From assembly GCA_902598305.1 (NCBI GenBank), contig CACKBL010000009.1, positions 23,279 through 87,278 of the forward strand: 64,000 bases of DNA, read 5' to 3'. Source of the DNA: an uncultured Bacteroidota bacterium (GTDB lineage: Bacteria; Bacteroidota; Bacteroidia; Flavobacteriales; Flavobacteriaceae). Positions 8,804 to 24,840 of the stretch are shown here, one piece after another. The notes below the pieces were generated by a model, which saw nothing but the letters and a program-made list of their open reading frames with translations, did no database searches and had not been told where the DNA came from. A program made the translations under genes and the position numbers. Position 1 is the first letter of the stretch. The number at the start of each line of letters is the position of its first letter.

Positions 8804-8903
8804 CAAATATCTCTCTTAAGCCCGATAAATACTAAGTGTTTTTTTATTGTAAGATTATGTGTAAGGTCTAGCTAAAAGTTATAAGTGGGATAGGCAGAGA
8901 TGC

Positions 8904-12236
<3,333 letters not shown>

Positions 12237-12275
12237 TTAAGTCTATTTTTGTTTATAACTAATTTTACTTTTCTT

Positions 12276-12722
12276 ATGATAAAATATATCCTTAAACTTT
12301 TTTTCCCCTTATTAATTAACATTACAAATGGACAATCAATTCTTTCTGAATCAGACAAAAATGAAATTTTATTAGTGCTTAAAAATCAAGAAAAATTTTG
12401 GAATAAAGGAGATATAGATGGCTTTATGCAAGGGTACGTGAAATCTGACTACTTAGTTTTTAATGGATCTAAAGGTCCCTTTTACGGATGGGATTCTGTC
12501 AAGGATAGATATATCAAAACATACCCCTCAAAAGAACAAATGGGAATACTTAATTTCAAAATTCAAAACATATCTTTAATCACTCCCAATGTTGCTCAAT
12601 TACTAGGACAGTTCTTTTTAAACTACCCCAAAAAGGAAGTATCAGGATATTTTACATTAGTGTTCATAAAATCTAAAGGTAGGTGGTTGATTTTGAGTGA
12701 TCACACTTCAAGAAGTGAATAA
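12276..12722 (+). CDS. SnoaL/DUF4440-like (NTF2-fold) secreted protein
   Basis: Signal peptide, then an FWNKGDIDGFMQGY ... GYFTLVFIKSKGRWLILSDHTS pattern typical of DUF4440/NTF2-like proteins. The ATG at 12276 is preferred over the upstream TTG at 12249. Confidence 0.55.
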   Translation: MIKYILKLFFPLLINITNGQSILSESDKNEILLVLKNQEKFWNKGDIDGFMQGYVKSDYLVFNGSKGPFYGWDSVKDRYIKTYPSKEQMGILNFKIQNISLITPNVAQLLGQFFLNYPKKEVSGYFTLVFIKSKGRWLILSDHTSRSE

Positions 12723-12788
12723 AGTAACTATAAACTGAGAATTAATTGATACTATTTATTTTATCTTGTATACGTAAATGAGATAATT

Positions 12789-13820
12789 ATGAATAAATTT
12801 CTTTTTCTGATAACTCTTTTTTTATTTATTTTTTTTTTATTTCCAAAAAAAGAACCCCCTCCAAATATTTTTTTAATAACTCTTGACGGAGTTAGATGGC
12901 AAGAAGTTTTTTATGGTATTGATAAGAATTTAGTTGAAAAAACAAATTATGTCAACGACAAACAGTTGTTACTTGATAAATATTTCACAATTAAATTATC
13001 CGAAAGACGAAAAAAGCTTATGCCTTTTATGTGGAATTACGTATATAAAAATGGCAAACTCTTCGGTGATTCCTTAAAAATGTCAAATTTTAGTTTAACA
13101 AATAACAAGATCTTTTCCTATCCAGGATACAATGAAATACTAACGGGGAAAGCAGATTCAACGATAAATTCAAATGCAAAAATTTATAATAAAAATATTA
13201 CCATATTGGAAAAATTAAATCAAACCATAGACTACAAAAACAAAATTGCTGCTTTTGCTAGTTGGGATGTGTTTCCATTTATAATTAATGATAAAAGGAG
13301 TGGAGTTCCAGTAAATGCTGGTTATATGTCAGAATTAAATTTAAAAACTCCCATAGTAAATTACATTAATAAAAATCAAAAAAGGACTCCAGTTATCTGG
13401 GATAATGTGAGATTAGACGTTTATACTCATAATCTTGCATTAGAATACATAAAAAAAAAGAAACCCAAATTTATTTATATTGCCTATGGAGAAACAGACG
13501 ACTTTGGTCATTCGGAGAAATATGATTTCTATATCAATTCTCTAAACTATACGGACAACATGATTGAAGAGCTTTGGAATTACGTTCAAAAAAATAAATT
13601 TTATAAGGATAACACCTATTTCATAATTACGACTGATCATGGGAGAGGTTTAATGGAAAATTGGCCTAACCATGGTAAATCTAAAGCCTCTTGGTTGGCA
13701 ATTTTAGGGCCTAAAATAAAAAATACTGGACTGGTAGAGGGAAATTTCTATGCTAGTCAAATAGCAGAAACCATCTTAAATATGTCAAAAGGAATAGATA
13801 CAAAAATACCTATTGAATAG
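12789..13820 (+). CDS. Alkaline-phosphatase-superfamily enzyme (type I phosphodiesterase/nucleotide pyrophosphatase-like)
   Basis: Metal-site and nucleophile-type blocks FLITLDGVRWQ, YGETDDFGHS and ITTDHGRG. N-terminal signal/anchor. Confidence 0.6.
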   Translation: MNKFLFLITLFLFIFFLFPKKEPPPNIFLITLDGVRWQEVFYGIDKNLVEKTNYVNDKQLLLDKYFTIKLSERRKKLMPFMWNYVYKNGKLFGDSLKMSNFSLTNNKIFSYPGYNEILTGKADSTINSNAKIYNKNITILEKLNQTIDYKNKIAAFASWDVFPFIINDKRSGVPVNAGYMSELNLKTPIVNYINKNQKRTPVIWDNVRLDVYTHNLALEYIKKKKPKFIYIAYGETDDFGHSEKYDFYINSLNYTDNMIEELWNYVQKNKFYKDNTYFIITTDHGRGLMENWPNHGKSKASWLAILGPKIKNTGLVEGNFYASQIAETILNMSKGIDTKIPIE

Positions 13821-13821
13821 T

Positions 13822-14937
13822 TTAAGCGTTCAAATACAGATTTTCTAGCACCTTGGTAAATATTTTTGTTTCCTCTAAAGTTCCAATGCTTATTCTGCAC
13901 CAATCATAAAAAGGTGGAAAAGGTCTCCCGATTTTAACACCCTGTTCAAGCATTTGTTTGCCCAAATCATCGATATGCCTTTTGGAATGAAAGAAAACAA
14001 AATTAGTATTTGAAGGTGTATACTTTAATCCAATTTTGTCGAGCGTTGTGGTTATCATTTTTCTTCCCTCAACAATTTTGTTTAATGAAAAGTTGTAAAA
14101 CTCGTTGTCATCAAGTGCATTGTCAGCAGCAGCAATAGCAAGAACATTTGTCATCGCCACAATATTCTCTCTTATTACTTTAGATAAATGAGAAGGGGCT
14201 ATCAAATAACCAATTCTAAAACCAGCTAGACCGTACACTTTTGAAAATGTTTTGGAAACAATTACATTTTTTCCCTCTCGAACAAGAGAGTCCATTGAGG
14301 GGTAATTTGGAGTTTGGATAAAATCATAATATGCTTCATCACTAAAAATAATAGTTTTCTTACTTGCAGACGAACAGAAATCAATCAAAGATTCTTTTCC
14401 AACTACAGTCCCAGTTGGATTATTTGGGTTGCACAAAAAAACAAGCTTTGTGTTAGTATTAATTCTATTATTGATTGCATTAAGATCATAGCCTTTGTCT
14501 TTTCCAACTGGCACCCACCGAATTTTTGCTCCCCATTGTTTAGCAAAATTCATCATTGCTAAAAATGTTGGTTTCGCAGCAATAATTTCTCCACCACCAT
14601 TTGCAAAGGTCAAACCAGTTATTTTTAAACCTTCCGTTGAACCGCCTGTTATAATTATATTTTCTGAACTAACTCCATGTAATTTTGCTAATTTGTTAGC
14701 AAGAGCACTTGAATATGCTCGAGGATATCTGCAGCCATTTTCAAAGGCTTTGATTACAGCCTTTTGAACTTTTTCTGACGGGCCGTAAGGATTTTCGTTA
14801 GAGCTCAGTTTGATTGTTTTAGACAGTGGTCTAGGATTAAATTTTCTTATTTCTTCCTTTGAAAGGGCTAAATTAGGTGCAAGAAAAAGCCCTCCTAAAC
14901 CAATTGATGAGCGAATCCAGTTTCTTCTTGTTTGCAT
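13822..14937 (-). CDS. HisC-like class I/II PLP aminotransferase with a twin-arginine (Tat) signal
   Basis: LSSNENPYGPS and the PLP-Lys block SKTFSKVYGLAGFRIGY are typical of histidinol-phosphate aminotransferase-like enzymes. The N-terminus MQTRRNWIRSSIGLGGLFLAPNLALS is a Tat-type leader. Confidence 0.8.
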   Translation of the reverse strand: MQTRRNWIRSSIGLGGLFLAPNLALSKEEIRKFNPRPLSKTIKLSSNENPYGPSEKVQKAVIKAFENGCRYPRAYSSALANKLAKLHGVSSENIIITGGSTEGLKITGLTFANGGGEIIAAKPTFLAMMNFAKQWGAKIRWVPVGKDKGYDLNAINNRINTNTKLVFLCNPNNPTGTVVGKESLIDFCSSASKKTIIFSDEAYYDFIQTPNYPSMDSLVREGKNVIVSKTFSKVYGLAGFRIGYLIAPSHLSKVIRENIVAMTNVLAIAAADNALDDNEFYNFSLNKIVEGRKMITTTLDKIGLKYTPSNTNFVFFHSKRHIDDLGKQMLEQGVKIGRPFPPFYDWCRISIGTLEETKIFTKVLENLYLNA

Positions 14938-15046
14938 TTTTAAGTTTTAAAGTGCAATTAAAAATAAAAAATATTTATAAATCCAGTTAAAAATTTAGTG
15001 TTAGTTTATGAACAAGTCTTATAGAAATAATCAACCCGTATATTTA

Positions 15047-17299
15047 TCAAAAGGCATCAAAAAGTATTTGTTTGTTTTTCACACCAATATCACTCAACAT
15101 ATCTCTGCAAGCTTTTATCATAAGTGGAGGTCCACATAGATAAAATTCAATTTTCGAAAGATCCGCTATTGTGTTTAAATAATTTTTATTTACAACCTCG
15201 TGAATATATCCAATATAACCTGTCCACTGATCTTCGGGGAGAGGTTCGGAAAGGGCTATATTAAAATTGAAATTTTTATTTTTATCATCTAACATGATAA
15301 AATAATCTTTATAAAAAATTTCCTTTTTTGATCTTGCTCCATACCAATAACTAACTTTCCTTTTAGTATTCATTGTATCAAACAAGTATGAGATCTGAGA
15401 TTTAAATGGAGCCATTCCAGCACCACCACCAATAAAAATTATTTCTTTTTGAGTTTGTTTTAAATGAAAATCTCCAAATGGTCCAAATAATTCAATCGTA
15501 TCTCCTTTTTTTAGATTAAATAAGTAAGAAGACCCTAAACCTGGTGGATTATTTGATCCATTTAAAGGTAATGCAAGTCGAACGTTAAATTTTAAATGAT
15601 CTTCAACTCTTGGGCTAGTTGCAATGGAATAGTTTCGAGTTATTTTAGATTCATTTTCAGAGCTAAGTTTTAACAATCCTTTATTTTTCCATACTTTTTT
15701 AAAATTATCTTCAATTTCAATTTCATTGAAACTGAGTTGGTATTTAGGTATTTCTAATTGCATATAATCGCCAGGTGTGAATTCTATATTTTCCCCTTCA
15801 ACTGGTTTTATTTTCAATTCTTTGACAAATGTTGCTAAATTAGAATTTGAAATCACTTCATAGATCTTACTTTTTTTACTTTCTTTCACTTTGATTCCAG
15901 AATTTGGATTAAGCATTATAACTCCATCAACAACTTTGGTTTTGTATGTATTTAAACCAACGCAAACAGGGTGTCTTTTTGCAGTCCCGTCTTTAAAATT
16001 GAATCTCCCGTTGTGCTTTGGACACTCTACCAAATCACCCACAACCAAACCGTCAGCTAAGTGAGTTTTTCCGTGTGTGCACATTCCATCTGTTGCGTAA
16101 ATTGCCTGTTCTTTTGTCTTATAAATCGCAAATGTTCTTTCTTCAAAATCCAAGCGGATAACGTCTTCGGATTCTATATCTTCGAATTTACATACATTCA
16201 ACCACCCTTGTATTAAGTTTGTTTCTGACCTTTTAATTCCACCTTGTATTTCATTATCCTCCTTAATAATCGGAATTTCTCTTTCAACAAAGTAAGTAGG
16301 GTCTTTTGTTTGTTTAATTAAAGCTGGTATTATCTCTTTATATGCTTCATATATACTTCCATATGGTTTTGGACAATATTTTTTTACAAGCTCGTGTAGT
16401 TTTGGAAGATTATAATACGGCACCAATGGAAACATGTGATGTTCAAGATGATAATTCATATTCCAATACAAAAATCGGTGAACTCGATTCATATAAATTG
16501 TTCTGCAATTTTTTCTGTGGTCAAGTACATTTTCGGCTAGACCGGCATGCTGAGTTAAGGCGTAGATCATTTTCAAATATGAACCAAAAAATTTTGGGAA
16601 AATCACATAAAATAAAGGGAGGGTAGTCTGATAGAAGAAGGCCAAACCAATAAATGTAGAATAAATAAAAACCCAAATCCAAGCGGGCAAAAGCATTTTA
16701 TGATATTCATCTTTAGGGACATACTCTGCCTCTTCAGCCCCAACTTTTCCTCTTAAATGGTTTATCCACTTTTTTGTTTCTTTAAAGGTCAGCTTTATCC
16801 CAATCATTTTTAAAATCATTCCCTTAATATCGGGTGGTCTTGGCGCAGTAATTTCAGGATCTCTACCAACAATTATTGTATCACTATGATGACGAGCATG
16901 ACTCCAACGCCAAGATATTGGTAATCGGTAGAGCATAAAAGAAGATATGAAATAAAGAAAATTATTCATCCAGTCGGTTTTGAAAGCAGTCCCATGACCC
17001 GATTCGTGCCATCTAGAATCTGCTGTCGAATAGTAAAGCACACTATAAATTAGTATTGGGAAGACTACTAAATAAGTTCCCCATAAAAAATAAATACAGA
17101 AACCAGAAAAACCAATAAGACCAAACCACAACAAGGTGTCAAGAATTGCAGGTAAATCTCTGCGTTCAAGTAATTTTTTCATTTCTTTTTTGGAGACAGG
17201 GGGTAGGTACCACTGAGCATCAGTAAGCCCCTTTTTCTTAGCATTTTTTGACTCTACACCCGTAAGTGAATAATCAATTTTATGAATTGCATCATTCAT
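15047..17299 (-). CDS. Three-domain fusion oxygenase: membrane di-iron desaturase/hydroxylase + Rieske [2Fe-2S] + FNR-like FAD/NAD(P)H reductase
   Basis: His boxes HESGHG, HARHH and HLEHHMFP. Rieske CTHGKTH...CPKHNGRF. Reductase motifs RNYSIAT, GLGSSYLF, GPFGDF, IGGGAGMAPF and LCGPPLM. Confidence 0.8.
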   Translation of the reverse strand: MNDAIHKIDYSLTGVESKNAKKKGLTDAQWYLPPVSKKEMKKLLERRDLPAILDTLLWFGLIGFSGFCIYFLWGTYLVVFPILIYSVLYYSTADSRWHESGHGTAFKTDWMNNFLYFISSFMLYRLPISWRWSHARHHSDTIIVGRDPEITAPRPPDIKGMILKMIGIKLTFKETKKWINHLRGKVGAEEAEYVPKDEYHKMLLPAWIWVFIYSTFIGLAFFYQTTLPLFYVIFPKFFGSYLKMIYALTQHAGLAENVLDHRKNCRTIYMNRVHRFLYWNMNYHLEHHMFPLVPYYNLPKLHELVKKYCPKPYGSIYEAYKEIIPALIKQTKDPTYFVEREIPIIKEDNEIQGGIKRSETNLIQGWLNVCKFEDIESEDVIRLDFEERTFAIYKTKEQAIYATDGMCTHGKTHLADGLVVGDLVECPKHNGRFNFKDGTAKRHPVCVGLNTYKTKVVDGVIMLNPNSGIKVKESKKSKIYEVISNSNLATFVKELKIKPVEGENIEFTPGDYMQLEIPKYQLSFNEIEIEDNFKKVWKNKGLLKLSSENESKITRNYSIATSPRVEDHLKFNVRLALPLNGSNNPPGLGSSYLFNLKKGDTIELFGPFGDFHLKQTQKEIIFIGGGAGMAPFKSQISYLFDTMNTKRKVSYWYGARSKKEIFYKDYFIMLDDKNKNFNFNIALSEPLPEDQWTGYIGYIHEVVNKNYLNTIADLSKIEFYLCGPPLMIKACRDMLSDIGVKNKQILFDAF

Positions 17300-17434
17300 T
17301 ATTTAGACAAAGTAATAATTATATTGTTGAGACAATAATAAAATTAAGACAATATTTTTATAAACTTATTTATTGTAATTAATTACACAGTTTTTCATTA
17401 TATATTTTGTATATTTTTTTATTAAAGATTCAAT

Positions 17435-18634
17435 ATGCAAAAAATTGCGATGCTGGGTTCTGGGTTTATTGGCAGATTTTATACTGACTCTTTACAAGGC
17501 TATAGAAATAAAGATAGAGTAGTTTCAGTTTATTCAAGAAGTGAGGAAAGTGTAAAAAAGTTTGCTCAAGATTATAAAGTCCCACACTATACTAATAATA
17601 TGGAAGAATCAATATCAAATAAAGATGTTGATGTTGTTTGTATAGCACTACCAAATTATCTTCATGAAAAAGCCGTTGAATTATGTTGTAAACATAATAA
17701 AGCAGTTCTTTGTACAAAGCCATTGGGAAGAAATGCGAAAGAAGCAAAAAGGATGCTGGAAGCAGTAGAAAAAGCAGGTATTTTTGCTGGATATCTGGAA
17801 GACTTATGTTATACTCCAAAATTTCTTAAAGCTATGGAAACTGTTAAAAGTGGTGGATTAGGAAAAATCATTTGGTCAAAATCTAGAGAGACTCACCCAG
17901 GTCCCCACAGCGATTGGTTTTGGGATAAAGAAAAAGCCGGTGGAGGATGTATTTTAGATATGGGATGTCATTGTATAGAAATTGGGAGAAACTATATTGG
18001 TAAAGACATCAAGCCTGTTGAGGTTATGTGTTGGGGTGATACACAGGTAAAGCCAATTGACGCAGAAGACCATGCGATAGGTCTTATAAAATATGAAAAT
18101 GGGGCAATTGGTCAATTTGAAGTTAGTTGGACATTTAGAGGGGGCCTTGACCTTAGAGACGAAGTTATGGGAACCGAAGGCACAATATGGGTTAACTCAT
18201 TTTTAAGAACTGGTTTTGAAATGTTCACAACTGGTAAAGGGAACGAGTACGTTGCTGAAAAAGCTGAATCTGACTCTGGTTGGTTGTTTCCGGTTGGAGA
18301 TGAATTGAATGAATTGGGATACAACCACATGTTTATGGATATGTTGAATTCTTTAGAACAATCTAAACAACCATCTGAAACTTTTTATGACGGTTATATT
18401 GTTAATGCAGTTGTAGATGCATGTTATAAATCTATAAAATCCAAGAAATGGGAAAAAATTAATCTTGAGATTTGGAGGGGTAAAGAAGGGGTTGATAAAA
18501 TAAGCACATTTGCTAACTATGACGAAAAATATTATCTCGTTAAAGAGGAGATGACACATTATGGTGATAAAAAACTTATTCTAAAAAATAAATCAACTGG
18601 AAAAATTATAGAGAAAATAGTAGAAAAAAAATGA
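17435..18634 (+). CDS. Gfo/Idh/MocA-family NAD(P)-dependent oxidoreductase
   Basis: N-terminal Rossmann MLGSGFIGRFY, a TKP (EKP-type) motif in CTKPLGRN, and the C-terminal alpha/beta domain of the family. Confidence 0.85.
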   Translation: MQKIAMLGSGFIGRFYTDSLQGYRNKDRVVSVYSRSEESVKKFAQDYKVPHYTNNMEESISNKDVDVVCIALPNYLHEKAVELCCKHNKAVLCTKPLGRNAKEAKRMLEAVEKAGIFAGYLEDLCYTPKFLKAMETVKSGGLGKIIWSKSRETHPGPHSDWFWDKEKAGGGCILDMGCHCIEIGRNYIGKDIKPVEVMCWGDTQVKPIDAEDHAIGLIKYENGAIGQFEVSWTFRGGLDLRDEVMGTEGTIWVNSFLRTGFEMFTTGKGNEYVAEKAESDSGWLFPVGDELNELGYNHMFMDMLNSLEQSKQPSETFYDGYIVNAVVDACYKSIKSKKWEKINLEIWRGKEGVDKISTFANYDEKYYLVKEEMTHYGDKKLILKNKSTGKIIEKIVEKK

Positions 18635-18648
18635 TGCTATCTAATGAA

Positions 18649-19362
18649 CTATTCTAGATTTACAGTTCTAATCGAGGGATTAAATGGGCTATCGATTAAT
18701 TTACCCTCTGAGTTTATAAGTTCCAATTTTATTTTAACTTCTCCTTTTTTGAGTCCTTCAAGATAGTAGGGTGACCATTCCGTGATAATGAATTCCGTAT
18801 CATTAATTGTAGCTTTTACTTTGTTTCCGTAAGGGGAAATTGTTGTGTTAATGAGGTAAAAATCTAAAAGTAATTTTTCTGTATCTTTTCCTTTGTAGGT
18901 TCCTTTTGGTCTGCTGTAAAAAAGAAACTCATTGTCTAAGTCAATTTTACTCTCACCTATTTGAGTTAAAATAAATGCATTCGGATTTTTTACAGATTCA
19001 TGATAAGATCTTGATAAAAAAGCTAGTATTACGTTATTATCACTATTGAGTTTTTTCTTAAAATTATTTGTGTAATGTGCAGAATATGGTCCGTTATTTA
19101 CTATAAAATGAATATGTTGTCCCTTTCCCGAGTTAGCCAGTTGACTTTCAATTTTATTGACAGTTTGTTCACCTAGCTGATAATTATTTATATCAAAAGA
19201 AAAAGCGTATTCATTATCATCAACAAGTGTTATAGATGCTGTACTTATTTTAGCGTTCAAATAAGATGGTGAGCCTTCAAGTTTTGAAAGTGTAATTGTA
19301 TTTGGATTATCACATGAGGAATAACCAAATACGAATAAAATCAATATCAAAATTTTTTTCAT
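18649..19362 (-). CDS. Hypothetical lipoprotein
   Basis: Lipoprotein signal MKKILILILFVFGYSSC. 237-aa ORF with no recognisable motifs. Confidence 0.55.
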   Translation of the reverse strand: MKKILILILFVFGYSSCDNPNTITLSKLEGSPSYLNAKISTASITLVDDNEYAFSFDINNYQLGEQTVNKIESQLANSGKGQHIHFIVNNGPYSAHYTNNFKKKLNSDNNVILAFLSRSYHESVKNPNAFILTQIGESKIDLDNEFLFYSRPKGTYKGKDTEKLLLDFYLINTTISPYGNKVKATINDTEFIITEWSPYYLEGLKKGEVKIKLELINSEGKLIDSPFNPSIRTVNLE

Positions 19363-23073: not shown

Positions 23074-24840
23074 ATGAAAAAAAACAATATATCATATTTT
23101 GATTTAAGACTATTTAAAAGAATAATGGTTTATACAAAACCATACATTAAAACTTATTATGTTGTTTTAATATCTGCAATTTTACTTTCCTTATTTTCTA
23201 CATTAAATCCATATTTATTAAAAATTACTGTAGATGACTACATTACCCCTAGAAACTATAGCGGGCTAATGACTTTTATTTTTATAATGTTAATTGTTCT
23301 TCTTCTTGAAGTTATTTTTCAATACATTTTTGTGTTTTACGCTAATTGGTTGGGGCAAATGGTGATCAAAGATATTCGAGTTTCGCTATTCAAAAAGTTA
23401 GTAAGTTTTAAAATGAAATTTTTTGATAAATCTGCGGTTGGAAGACTAGTTACGCGGTCAGTTAGCGATATTGAATCAATCGCAAATATTTTTAGTCAGG
23501 GGTTATTCATGATACTTGCTGATTTTTTAAAAATGGGAATAGTTATAATAGTTATGATAGTTATTAATTTTGAGCTTTCCTTGGTTGTTTTTTCGATTCT
23601 TCCACTGATAATTTATGCAACTAGACTATTTCAAAAGTCAATGAAAAAAGCTTTTGAACAAGTTAGGGTTGAAATTTCAAATATGAATACTTTTCTTCAG
23701 GAGAGAATAACCGGAATGAGGATAGTACAAATTTTTAATAGAGAAAGTAAAGAATTAGAAGCATTTAAAATGATTAACGAAAGACATAAAAAGGCTTGGT
23801 TAAAAACTGTTTGGTACAATTCAATTTTTTTCCCTGTTGCAGAATTATCAACATCTATAACACTAGGTCTTCTGGTATGGTATGGGGGATTAAGGACTTA
23901 TGCTGAAGATAATTTCTCACTGGGGGTTTTGTTCTTATTTATCCAACTATCACAAAATCTATTTCGCCCGTTGAGGCAAATTGCTGACAAATTTAACACA
24001 TTACAAATGGGAATGGTTGCTGCGGACAGGGTTTTTGAAATATTGGATAAAAAAGAACCAACTGATAATAGGTTAGTCAAATTACCCCTCAATTTAAAGG
24101 GTGAGATAACCATTGAGGATTTAAATTTTTCATATGAAAGTGGGCAAGAGGTTTTAAAAAATATAAATATTAATATTAATGCAGGTGAGAAAATTGCACT
24201 AGTTGGGTCAACTGGATCTGGTAAGTCGACTCTAATAAATCTTATACTTCTTCTTTATGAATATGAAAAAGGAGATATAAGACTAGATGGAATTTCCATT
24301 AATAAAATTTCAAAAAATAATTTAAGGTCTCAAGTGGCAAATGTATCTCAAGATATATTTTTATTTGCAGACAGTATCTTTAATAATGTAACTCTATACA
24401 ATCCTAATATTTCCCTTATAGATGTAGAAAAAGCAGCCAGTGATATCGGCATTGATAGATTTATTAAAAAATTACCAAATGGATTCAAATATAGAGTTAA
24501 TGAAGGAGGAACAATTCTTTCTTCAGGTCAAAGACAACTCATATCTTTCTTAAGAGCTTACGTTTCAAATCCAAAAATCTTGATCTTAGATGAAGCAACT
24601 TCGTCGGTTGACTCTTTCACAGAAGAACTTATTCAGACAGCTACTGATAGAATTATTAAAAATAAAACATCAATTATTATTGCTCATAGACTCACTACAA
24701 TAAAAAAAGCTGACAAGATAATCGTTTTAGATAGGGGTAAAATAGTTGAAACGGGAACACATTTAGAACTTATCAATCTTGAAAAAGGTCACTACAAAAA
24801 ATTACATGAGTTTCAATTCAATAGAGAAGAGATAAGTTAG
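23074..24840 (+). CDS. ABC exporter, fused permease/ATPase (MsbA-like)
   Basis: Six-TM N-domain, Walker A GSTGSGKST, ABC signature LSSGQRQ, Walker B ILILDEATS, and H-loop IAHRL. Confidence 0.9.
   Translation: MKKNNISYFDLRLFKRIMVYTKPYIKTYYVVLISAILLSLFSTLNPYLLKITVDDYITPRNYSGLMTFIFIMLIVLLLEVIFQYIFVFYANWLGQMVIKDIRVSLFKKLVSFKMKFFDKSAVGRLVTRSVSDIESIANIFSQGLFMILADFLKMGIVIIVMIVINFELSLVVFSILPLIIYATRLFQKSMKKAFEQVRVEISNMNTFLQERITGMRIVQIFNRESKELEAFKMINERHKKAWLKTVWYNSIFFPVAELSTSITLGLLVWYGGLRTYAEDNFSLGVLFLFIQLSQNLFRPLRQIADKFNTLQMGMVAADRVFEILDKKEPTDNRLVKLPLNLKGEITIEDLNFSYESGQEVLKNINININAGEKIALVGSTGSGKSTLINLILLLYEYEKGDIRLDGISINKISKNNLRSQVANVSQDIFLFADSIFNNVTLYNPNISLIDVEKAASDIGIDRFIKKLPNGFKYRVNEGGTILSSGQRQLISFLRAYVSNPKILILDEATSSVDSFTEELIQTATDRIIKNKTSIIIAHRLTTIKKADKIIVLDRGKIVETGTHLELINLEKGHYKKLHEFQFNREEIS

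Follow-up and report, generated by a model that had tools for sequence, protein, structure and literature searches.

Methyl ethers block the catabolism of sugars, and only one bacterial sugar demethylase has been proven, a P450 system of three proteins in a few marine flavobacteria, in which a P450 (CYP236A), a ferredoxin and a ferredoxin reductase demethylate 6-O-methyl-D-galactose (marine Flavobacteriia; PMC6292453, PMC9400963, PMC10033563). The MocD, MocE and MocF proteins form a genetically defined system for the catabolism of the rhizopine 3-O-methyl-scyllo-inosamine, and MocD-like clusters are found in rhizobia, Burkholderia and Acidiphilium. We analysed a stretch of 64,000 nucleotides (the window in what follows; positions 23,279 to 87,278 of contig CACKBL010000009.1, assembly GCA_902598305.1) from an uncultured member of the Flavobacteriaceae. 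One of its genes, located on the minus strand at 15047-17299, encodes a single polypeptide in which a MocD-type membrane di-iron oxygenase, a MocE-type Rieske ferredoxin and an NqrF-type reductase are fused. We consider it rather likely that this protein is a self-sufficient monooxygenase, anchored in the cytoplasmic membrane, that acts on an imported sugar or cyclitol.

MocDEF is the closest known system. The order oxygenase, Rieske protein, reductase is the same as in the fusion, and a TIM-barrel companion and Gfo/Idh/MocA neighbours recur in both. The fusion differs from it in being one polypeptide instead of the product of three genes, and in carrying a module of the NqrF/ferredoxin-NADP reductase (FNR) type in place of the MocF of about 410 residues. 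Unlike MocDEF loci, the window is devoid of MocB, MocR, MocC, PanB-like and PurU genes, and its host is a marine flavobacterium. Sequence comparison indicates that the fused family is a MocD/MocE oxygenase made self-sufficient by the capture of an NqrF-type reductase. The closest analogue of proven function is the CYP236A system, which resembles the fusion in the proposed O2- and NAD(P)H-dependent O-demethylation of a sugar with release of formaldehyde, and in its algal-glycan setting. It differs in having a haem rather than a membrane di-iron catalyst and in consisting of three soluble proteins; moreover, the activity is proven for the P450 and proposed for the fused family.

Other systems share single traits with the fusion. 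AlkB, which works with rubredoxin and rubredoxin reductase, and XylM are likewise His-box membrane di-iron enzymes, and they hydroxylate methyl groups; natural AlkB-rubredoxin fusions exist, so that the electron carrier is sometimes fused. In contrast with AlkB, the carrier is here a Rieske domain and not a rubredoxin, the reductase is fused as well, and no solved structure is detectably similar in sequence. P450 BM3 and the RhF-type P450s have the same design, with catalyst and redox partners on one chain, and a different catalytic domain. GntB, a membrane desaturase-like L-arginine hydroxylase, shows that a polar small molecule can be a substrate in this superfamily, but it is not fused to its partners. 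To this the window adds evidence from repeated deletions, the rejection of a supposed aminocyclitol gene trio, and an anhydro-sugar as an alternative substrate. If O-demethylation is indeed the reaction, a single-chain di-iron enzyme present in hundreds of species (Bacteroidota, Verrucomicrobiota, Acidobacteriota and other phyla) would offer another and far more widespread solution to the problem of methyl ethers. As the membrane di-iron counterpart of the self-sufficient P450s, it would also be attractive for biocatalysis.

Domain architecture and cofactor sites

The gene starts with ATG and is an uninterrupted frame of 750 codons, specifying 750 residues. A preliminary description, made from the letters of the window alone, had read it as a concatenation of three parts without giving the strand; the translation, all the motifs quoted there and Pfam bear this out. 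Pfam matches were obtained with FA_desaturase (PF00487; residues 76-315, 2.8e-31, 109.6 bits against a curated cut-off of 29.7, which assigns the domain to this superfamily), Rieske (366-452, 2.4e-15), FAD_binding_6 (549-612, 1.1e-6) and NAD_binding_1 (622-732, 6.5e-16), all four far beyond chance. The di-iron motifs HESGHG, HARHH and HLEHHMFP lie at residues 98-103, 134-138 and 284-291, and the Rieske motifs CTHGKTH and CPKHNGRF at 407-413 and 426-433. Those of the reductase are RNYSIAT (555-561), GLGSSYLF (587-594), GPFGDF (606-611), IGGGAGMAPF (623-632) and LCGPPLM (721-727).

The cofactor sites were then compared in an alignment of 69 full-length homologues, which are 51-97% identical to the window protein. 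In these and in four split proteins, the histidines of the three boxes (H98/H102, H134/H137/H138 and H284/H287/H288) were invariant, as were H251, H261 and H302. The Rieske ligands C407, H409, C426 and H429 were invariant in the 69 homologues, and so were R555-x-Y-S558, G625-G-x-G-x-A-P631, C722-G-P-P725 and the C-terminal F750 of the reductase. The intact and invariant motifs fit the proposal of the preliminary description that the whole path from NAD(P)H through FAD and 2Fe-2S to the di-iron centre is carried by one chain.

The first two domains are related to the Moc proteins. By BLASTP, the di-iron domain was 48-50% identical to split MocD or MocD-like proteins over 336-360 residues (344-384 bits), and the Rieske domain was 49-57% identical to MocE (55% for the MocE of the Rhizobium leguminosarum moc-type locus). 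With TIGR02377, the model of the MocE family, the Rieske domain, here part of a larger protein, scored 130.0 bits, just below the cut-off of 136.15. Its fold matched dioxygenase Rieske ferredoxins in Foldseek (TM score of about 0.8). The C-terminal 270 residues, in contrast, showed no significant BLASTP match to MocF (E > 0.2). They are 43-45% identical to NqrF proteins, match PDB 2r6h (NqrF-type) at 1.1e-79 and, in the AlphaFold2 (AF2) model, superpose on it with a TMt of 0.95 and an rmsd of 1.2 Å at 44% identity, the C-terminal aromatic residue being kept. Unlike NqrF, the module lacks a membrane helix and a plant-type [2Fe-2S] domain, and it is not encoded in an nqr operon. The reductase is therefore a non-homologous replacement of MocF, by which the electron donor was swapped. 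Thus, the parallel with MocD, MocE and MocF drawn in the preliminary description holds for function and, as regards homology, for the MocD and MocE parts, but not for MocF, which is not homologous to the NqrF-type module.

This resemblance has led to a misleading name. The NCBIfam equivalog model for nqrF, TIGR01941, scored 318.6 bits with the window protein, above its cut-off of 295, and homologues are called 'NADH:ubiquinone reductase (Na+-transporting) subunit F' by NCBI and JGI because this model passes its cut-off on the C-terminal third alone. However, the match spans only positions 132-403 of the 405 of the model, and 470 residues of MocD and MocE type replace the N-terminal helix and the plant-type ferredoxin of NqrF. 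The gene lies outside the nqr operon, next to a dehydrogenase and an aminotransferase gene, and a true full-length NqrF (560 bits, model positions 1-405) is encoded elsewhere in the same genome, in an nqrD-nqrE-nqrF-apbE row on another contig (C6). The other trivial explanation, an artefactual fusion, had been raised in the preliminary description. It is ruled out by a congener metagenome-assembled genome that contains the same ORF at 92% identity, and contradicted by the thousands of proteins, encoded in independently made assemblies, that share its architecture and length. Among the hundreds of separate genomes in which the architecture recurs are those of isolates, for example Winogradskyella sediminis DSM 28134 and Sunxiuqinia indica. 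The partial model match, the true NqrF elsewhere and this recurrence refute the idea of an NqrF subunit of the Na+-pumping NADH:quinone reductase or of an assembly chimera, to which we give practically no chance. The name NqrF is wrong for the fused family, and in practical terms the analysis exposes a systematic error of annotation in RefSeq and JGI.

Hydropathy showed two hydrophobic hairpins in the di-iron domain, at about residues 48-94 and 196-250, and AF2 predicted helices at 48-71/76-94 and 196-223/229-251. Lys and Arg abound at the N-terminus and between the hairpins. The predicted topology fits the usual layout of desaturases, with four transmembrane helices in two hairpins and with the His boxes and the two termini facing the cytoplasm. 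Because the termini and His boxes are placed there, the Rieske and flavin domains are predicted to be cytoplasmic too. The full-length AF2 model (pLDDT 83) had NqrF as its only structural matches; a model of residues 1-470 (pLDDT 74) matched Rieske ferredoxins in Foldseek and gave otherwise weak matches (TM score 0.44-0.51), AlkB and SCD1 being absent from the top 50. No PDB sequence relative of the di-iron domain was found at E values up to 10, and we drew no mechanistic conclusion from either model. The only Foldseek matches covering much of the di-iron domain were subunits of the chloroplast Ycf2/Orf2971-FtsHi motor complex (8xqw_M and 8xks_K; TM score 0.44-0.51).

Substrate class and candidate reaction

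All ORFs in the surroundings of 82 fused genes were clustered, and Pfam and NCBIfam served to name those clusters that recurred. The counts are approximate, the ORF calls being our own and the starts over-extended in GC-rich loci, and they refer to a distance of up to 6 kb unless adjacency is mentioned. At least one sugar-type neighbour was found in 57 of the 82 loci. An unannotated TIM-barrel protein of 270-300 residues was adjacent to the fused gene in 28 loci and an aldose 1-epimerase in 16 (25 by clustering). AraC regulators were present in 32 loci, sugar porters of the major facilitator superfamily (MFS) in 14, Gfo/Idh/MocA proteins in 12, a protein of the uroporphyrinogen decarboxylase (URO-D)/MtaA-like type in 12, RhaT in seven and an aldo-keto reductase in five. 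No lipid-synthesis or carotenoid family recurred among the neighbours of the 82 loci. One fusion from the Flavobacteriaceae shares its SusC/D locus with a porphyranase-domain protein, a sugar MFS transporter, a 3-keto-disaccharide hydrolase, a Gfo/Idh/MocA protein, an aldo-keto reductase and LacI, and a fusion from Lentimonas is situated among three sulfatases. Porphyran contains 6-O-methyl-galactose (PMC6292453, PMC9400963).

From this context and from the kinship with MocD, the substrate is probably an imported sugar or cyclitol and not an acyl chain. The enzyme might instead modify membrane lipids or glycolipids (an acyl chain, a sphingoid base, a carotenoid or a head-group), the fusion merely supplying electrons. 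PF00487 consists mostly of lipid-acting proteins, the predicted location is in the membrane, the models for DesB, CrtR and DesA are weakly matched, and a GDSL/acyltransferase-like gene is found near the fusion in marine relatives. However, the scores obtained with lipid and carotenoid models were only 8-43 bits (DesA, 42.7; DesB, 16; CrtR, 23.2; CrtW, 7.9), none reaching the cut-offs of 350-500, as compared with the 344-384 bits obtained with MocD-type proteins. The recurrent neighbours are sugar regulators, transporters and isomerases rather than lipid-synthesis genes, and the same genome encodes a separate, second desaturase-family gene. Furthermore, 63 residues are invariant across the 69 fused and four split proteins, with Asp, Arg, Asn, Trp and Glu making up most of those that flank the His boxes. 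We therefore regard a role in lipid modification as improbable. The preference of the preliminary description for an oxygenase or demethylase over a lipid desaturase is supported by the gene context in the 82 loci and by the very weak lipid-model scores; the clustering with acyl-lipid desaturases that it had named as counter-evidence was not found, nor was a lipid operon context among these loci. The model for GntB also scored weakly with the window protein (34.5 bits).

In the sugar or cyclitol monooxygenase that we favour, a hydride from NAD(P)H would be taken up by the FAD of the C-terminal module. Single electrons would then pass from the FAD to the Rieske [2Fe-2S] cluster and on to the di-iron centre, an order that follows from what is known of NqrF/FNR modules, of Rieske ferredoxins and of His-box di-iron enzymes. 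The di-iron centre, presumably held by nine conserved histidines at the cytoplasmic face of the four-helix MocD-type domain, would activate O2 and hydroxylate a C-H bond at a carbon adjoining an ether oxygen of the sugar or cyclitol. With a methyl ether, the resulting hemiacetal would break down to the free sugar and formaldehyde, which amounts to O-demethylation. In this organism the enzyme would act within a two-gene block, together with a divergently encoded Gfo/Idh/MocA sugar dehydrogenase.

O-demethylation is the leading, though still tentative, reading of the reaction because of the MocDEF model, the one-carbon genes in split clusters and the one family member beside a porphyranase-domain gene. 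The split loci were found by searching PLSDB plasmids with the di-iron domain (tblastn), which gave 284 records, mostly from Rhizobium and Sinorhizobium. In the loci inspected, a gene for a 'fatty acid desaturase family' or 'MocD-like' protein of 360-370 residues is followed by one for a 'MocE family' Rieske ferredoxin of 104 residues and, in four of five loci, by one for an FAD-dependent pyridine-nucleotide-disulfide oxidoreductase of about 410 residues (MocF), which the Burkholderia locus lacks. On pRLa11 of R. leguminosarum A1, an IolE-like gene, Gfo/Idh/MocA genes, a binding protein and a MocR-type regulator precede D, E and F, so that the genes are arranged as in the mocCABRDEF locus of the literature (locus names after PMC10107442, PMC6668481 and PMC5789663). 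In rhizobial split clusters, a PanB-like 3-methyl-2-oxobutanoate hydroxymethyltransferase gene comes directly after MocF, accompanied in a moc-type locus by PurU. Such one-carbon (folate) genes would fit the release of formaldehyde or the capture of a one-carbon unit. In Pseudomonas syringae, mocDEF has been reported beside a second 'xylose isomerase' gene (PMC5132102).

The same enzyme, with the same electron path, could also hydroxylate a ring or terminal C-H bond of an unmethylated sugar. Examples would be C-1 of a 1,5-anhydro-alditol, a carbon next to an ether oxygen whose hydroxylation would yield the free aldose, and the methyl group of a 6-deoxy sugar. In the first case a member of the family could be responsible for the orphan 'C-1 oxygenation' by which 1,5-anhydro-D-mannitol is converted to D-mannose in Sinorhizobium morelense, a step reportedly described without a gene by Kuhn, Yu and Giffhorn in 2006. 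The frequent adjacency of an aldose 1-epimerase would suit an enzyme that releases one anomer of an aldose, and Gfo/Idh/MocA neighbours are common; 1,5-anhydro-D-fructose reductase belongs to that family, and its structure 2glx is among the relatives of the window dehydrogenase. In marine relatives of the window a gene of glycoside hydrolase family 31 (GH31), a family that includes alpha-glucan lyases, comes after the dehydrogenase; the RhaT transporters of seven loci and the lack of C1-detoxification genes near fused genes point in the same direction. We found no direct evidence for this reaction, however. The closest PDB relatives of the window dehydrogenase are other enzymes than 2glx, and the rhizobial MocD-like clusters inspected contain folate/C1 genes but no gene resembling anhydrofructose reductase. 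Oxidation of an unmethylated sugar is thus unlikely, though less so than lipid modification.

Several observations weigh against the monooxygenase that we favour, or against its taking part in demethylation. Membrane di-iron enzymes usually take hydrophobic substrates. The demethylation model for MocDEF acting on 3-O-methyl-scyllo-inosamine, from Bahar et al. in 1998, reportedly rests on genetics, and our full-text literature searches returned no paper on the fused family and no assay of any fused member or of MocDEF. No formaldehyde-handling genes were seen in the neighbourhoods of fused genes. When carriers of the fusion were examined for formaldehyde fixation by the ribulose monophosphate (RuMP) pathway, no HxlA above cut-off was obtained in five congeners and no RuMP synthase was seen in the genus, a result that carries little information. 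The inter-domain geometry of the full-length AF2 model is uncertain (pTM 0.58). The context in the window itself is thin: a single dehydrogenase is present, and a transporter, a regulator and the TIM-barrel companion are all missing. Finally, in Chitinophaga and others the dehydrogenase gene lies directly behind an MFS gene of the Nuc_H_symport/LacY-like type with no fusion nearby, and the link between dehydrogenase and oxygenase may be specific to the marine lineage or partly positional.

A search for P450 genes found none in G000 (the genome of the window, 88% complete) or in G438 and one in Winogradskyella, which is suggestive only. In a broader view, the family would comprise O2-dependent 'sugar-ether alpha-hydroxylases', the first enzymes of the membrane di-iron kind to have free sugars as substrates. 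These would account for non-P450 demethylation of methyl sugars in marine and soil glycan degraders, include the orphan oxygenase that converts a 1,5-anhydro-alditol to an aldose, and provide a single-chain biocatalyst. We consider this generalization a speculative one, with a small chance of being right.

A two-gene block and its repeated loss

The genes and segments concerned are listed in the table. The dehydrogenase is unusually conserved for its family, with 77-80% identity across distant Bacteroidota (Chitinophaga caeni, Cyclobacteriaceae and others; L122, L124), and no family model names it. In marine relatives with a fusion 68-70% identical to that of the window, the divergent dehydrogenase is kept at 84% identity in the same arrangement. 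There it is followed by GH31, the GDSL/acyltransferase-like gene, a second Gfo/Idh/MocA gene and 3-keto-disaccharide hydrolases, and the aminotransferase is absent.

Table. Features of the fused locus and of related loci. Coordinates are those of the window unless a locus (L number) is named; junctions give the two window positions that are joined.
Feature	Coordinates	Strand	Basis or remark
Fused MocD-type di-iron oxygenase, Rieske ferredoxin and NqrF-type reductase, 750 aa	15047..17299	-	stop codon 15047-15049
Membrane di-iron domain, aa 1-345	16265..17299	-	Pfam PF00487 (2.8e-31), MocD identity, invariant residues, AF2 helices, hydropathy
MocE-type Rieske [2Fe-2S] domain, aa 364-465	15905..16210	-	Pfam, TIGR02377, MocE identity, Foldseek
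NqrF-type FAD/NAD(H) reductase module, aa 480-750 (RNYS, GGGAGMAP, CGPP, F750)	15050..15862	-	TIGR01941, PDB 2r6h, Foldseek
Divergent intergenic region, 135 nt, AT-rich, presumed to hold both promoters	17300..17434	.	sequence
Gfo/Idh/MocA dehydrogenase, 399 aa, cytoplasmic, divergent	17435..18634	+	Pfam; starts directly with the Rossmann fold
HisC-like class I/II pyridoxal phosphate-dependent aminotransferase	13822..14937	-	109 nt downstream of the fusion
Predicted lipoprotein, 237 aa (MKK...SSCDNS in congeners)	18649-19362	-	no Pfam or NCBIfam match; site conserved genus-wide
Block missing in congeners, outer bounds	14972..18648	.	blastn and junction sequences
Junction in G008	15087|18491
Junction in G004	~14983|18588		at 7-nt ATAAATC microhomology
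Junction in G007	15292|~18641
Junction in G006	14971|18616
Junction in G001	14971|18649
One-carbon genes by MocF, rhizobial	L094 9694-10503; L096 11741-13477; L105 12667-13470
TIM-barrel companion, examples	L014 7145-7963; L058 10338-11249; L095 9658-10479		alignment A3

Among 25 relatives, the intact pair of fusion and dehydrogenase was present only in G000 and G002. In five congeners, blastn and the junction sequences showed the same flanks (the aminotransferase on one side; the 237-residue lipoprotein, rpsT and rho on the other) with the pair excised at different junctions. Of the fusion, the final 38 coding bases remain in G008 and the final 81 codons in G007; of the dehydrogenase, the final 144 bases remain in G008 and the final 47 in G004. 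Because of these remnants, we conclude that the pair is ancestral and has been deleted at least three times independently. The aminotransferase, in contrast, is kept at 92-93% identity in G004, G007 and G008, the congeners where it could be traced. Since these deletions spare the aminotransferase, the fusion and the dehydrogenase behave as a unit of which the aminotransferase is not part. Repeated clean deletions of this kind mark the gene as an accessory trait under fluctuating selection, and they allow real partners to be separated from chance neighbours.

The deletions bear on another possible reading of the locus, in which dehydrogenase, fusion and aminotransferase form a 'Moc-like trio', that is, one aminocyclitol pathway that demethylates, transaminates and oxidizes or reduces its substrate as in rhizopine catabolism. 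The three genes are adjacent in the window, the adjacency is kept in the congener G002, and the same three enzyme classes act on compounds of the scyllo-inosamine type. However, the aminotransferase has a clear twin-arginine signal (MQTRRNWIRSSIGLGGLFLAPNLALS; MQTRRNWIRSS...) and would be exported, whereas the dehydrogenase and the catalytic side of the oxygenase are cytoplasmic. In G004, G007 and G008 the other two genes have been deleted and the aminotransferase has not; it is no neighbour of the fusions that are 68-70% identical, and none of the 80 other fused loci contains it. With different compartments, deletions that spare the aminotransferase and relatives that lack it, we rejected the trio as a coincidental adjacency and consider such a pathway very improbable.

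The matches of the aminotransferase include the model of the periplasmic pyoverdine transaminase PtaA (188 bits, below cut-off). G001 (L118) also lacks 5.9 kb corresponding to 8882-14787 of the window, a segment that contains a GH2 beta-galactosidase, a DUF4440 protein, a sulfatase-superfamily gene and most of the aminotransferase. The region is a gene-loss hotspot of a streamlined genome.

Distribution and further neighbours of the family

The preliminary description had left open how common the three-domain order is. In a collection of 5.8 billion proteins, more than 7000 clusters matched the fusion over its full length, and the best 120 were all 744-782 residues long with the same domains. 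Among contigs of GTDB genomes, one per species, at least 584 species genomes contain a relative (584 of 600 among the matches listed). The hosts among these listed matches belong to about seven phyla (Bacteroidota, Verrucomicrobiota, Acidobacteriota, Planctomycetota, Kiritimatiellota and Chloroflexota, with one gammaproteobacterium). The distribution is nonetheless sparse: besides the genome of the window, one of 400 evenly drawn high-quality Bacteroidota genomes carried the fusion, and it was found in none of 16 other genera of the Flavobacteriaceae. Clustering of the MocD-type domain at 50% gave 253 clusters at E values up to 1e-30. A 488-residue representative, P0125, had been read as a two-domain MocD-MocE fusion; this was dropped, as it gave no Rieske match.

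When a tree was built from the di-iron domain, the split proteins, four in number, fell into one clade inside the diversity of the fused ones, near the window protein and other Bacteroidia sequences, the window protein being on a long, compositionally biased branch and the root being unreliable. With the second desaturase of the genome as outgroup, on a branch of about 10 substitutions per site, the tree is not rootable, and we did not deduce from it which of the two forms, split or fused, came first.

Among the TIM-barrel companions, 14 of 26 members touch PF01261, and the family is a remote one within the xylose-isomerase-like superfamily. Its best relative in the PDB is the dehydratase AsbF (3e-6), no NCBIfam model exists for it, and E126, H128, R129, D154, S156, H157, H184, R186 and E234 are invariant. 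A protein of the same family is encoded after the split MocDEF-like genes of Acidiphilium.

The URO-D-fold protein found within 6 kb in 12 of the 82 loci (e.g. L025 3146-4414) is akin to the MtaA/CmuA methyltransferases (47 bits, below cut-off), which would place a methyl-handling enzyme beside a putative demethylase. In three loci from the Flavobacteriaceae (L062 10274-11964, L073 10247-12678 and L101 11301-12281), an aldo-keto reductase is encoded downstream of the fused gene. It is preceded by a creatininase-fold protein in L062, where this gave a weak IolN-like match, and in L073, where a RhaT-type transporter comes next. This operon type of the Flavobacteriaceae differs from the operon of the soil phyla.

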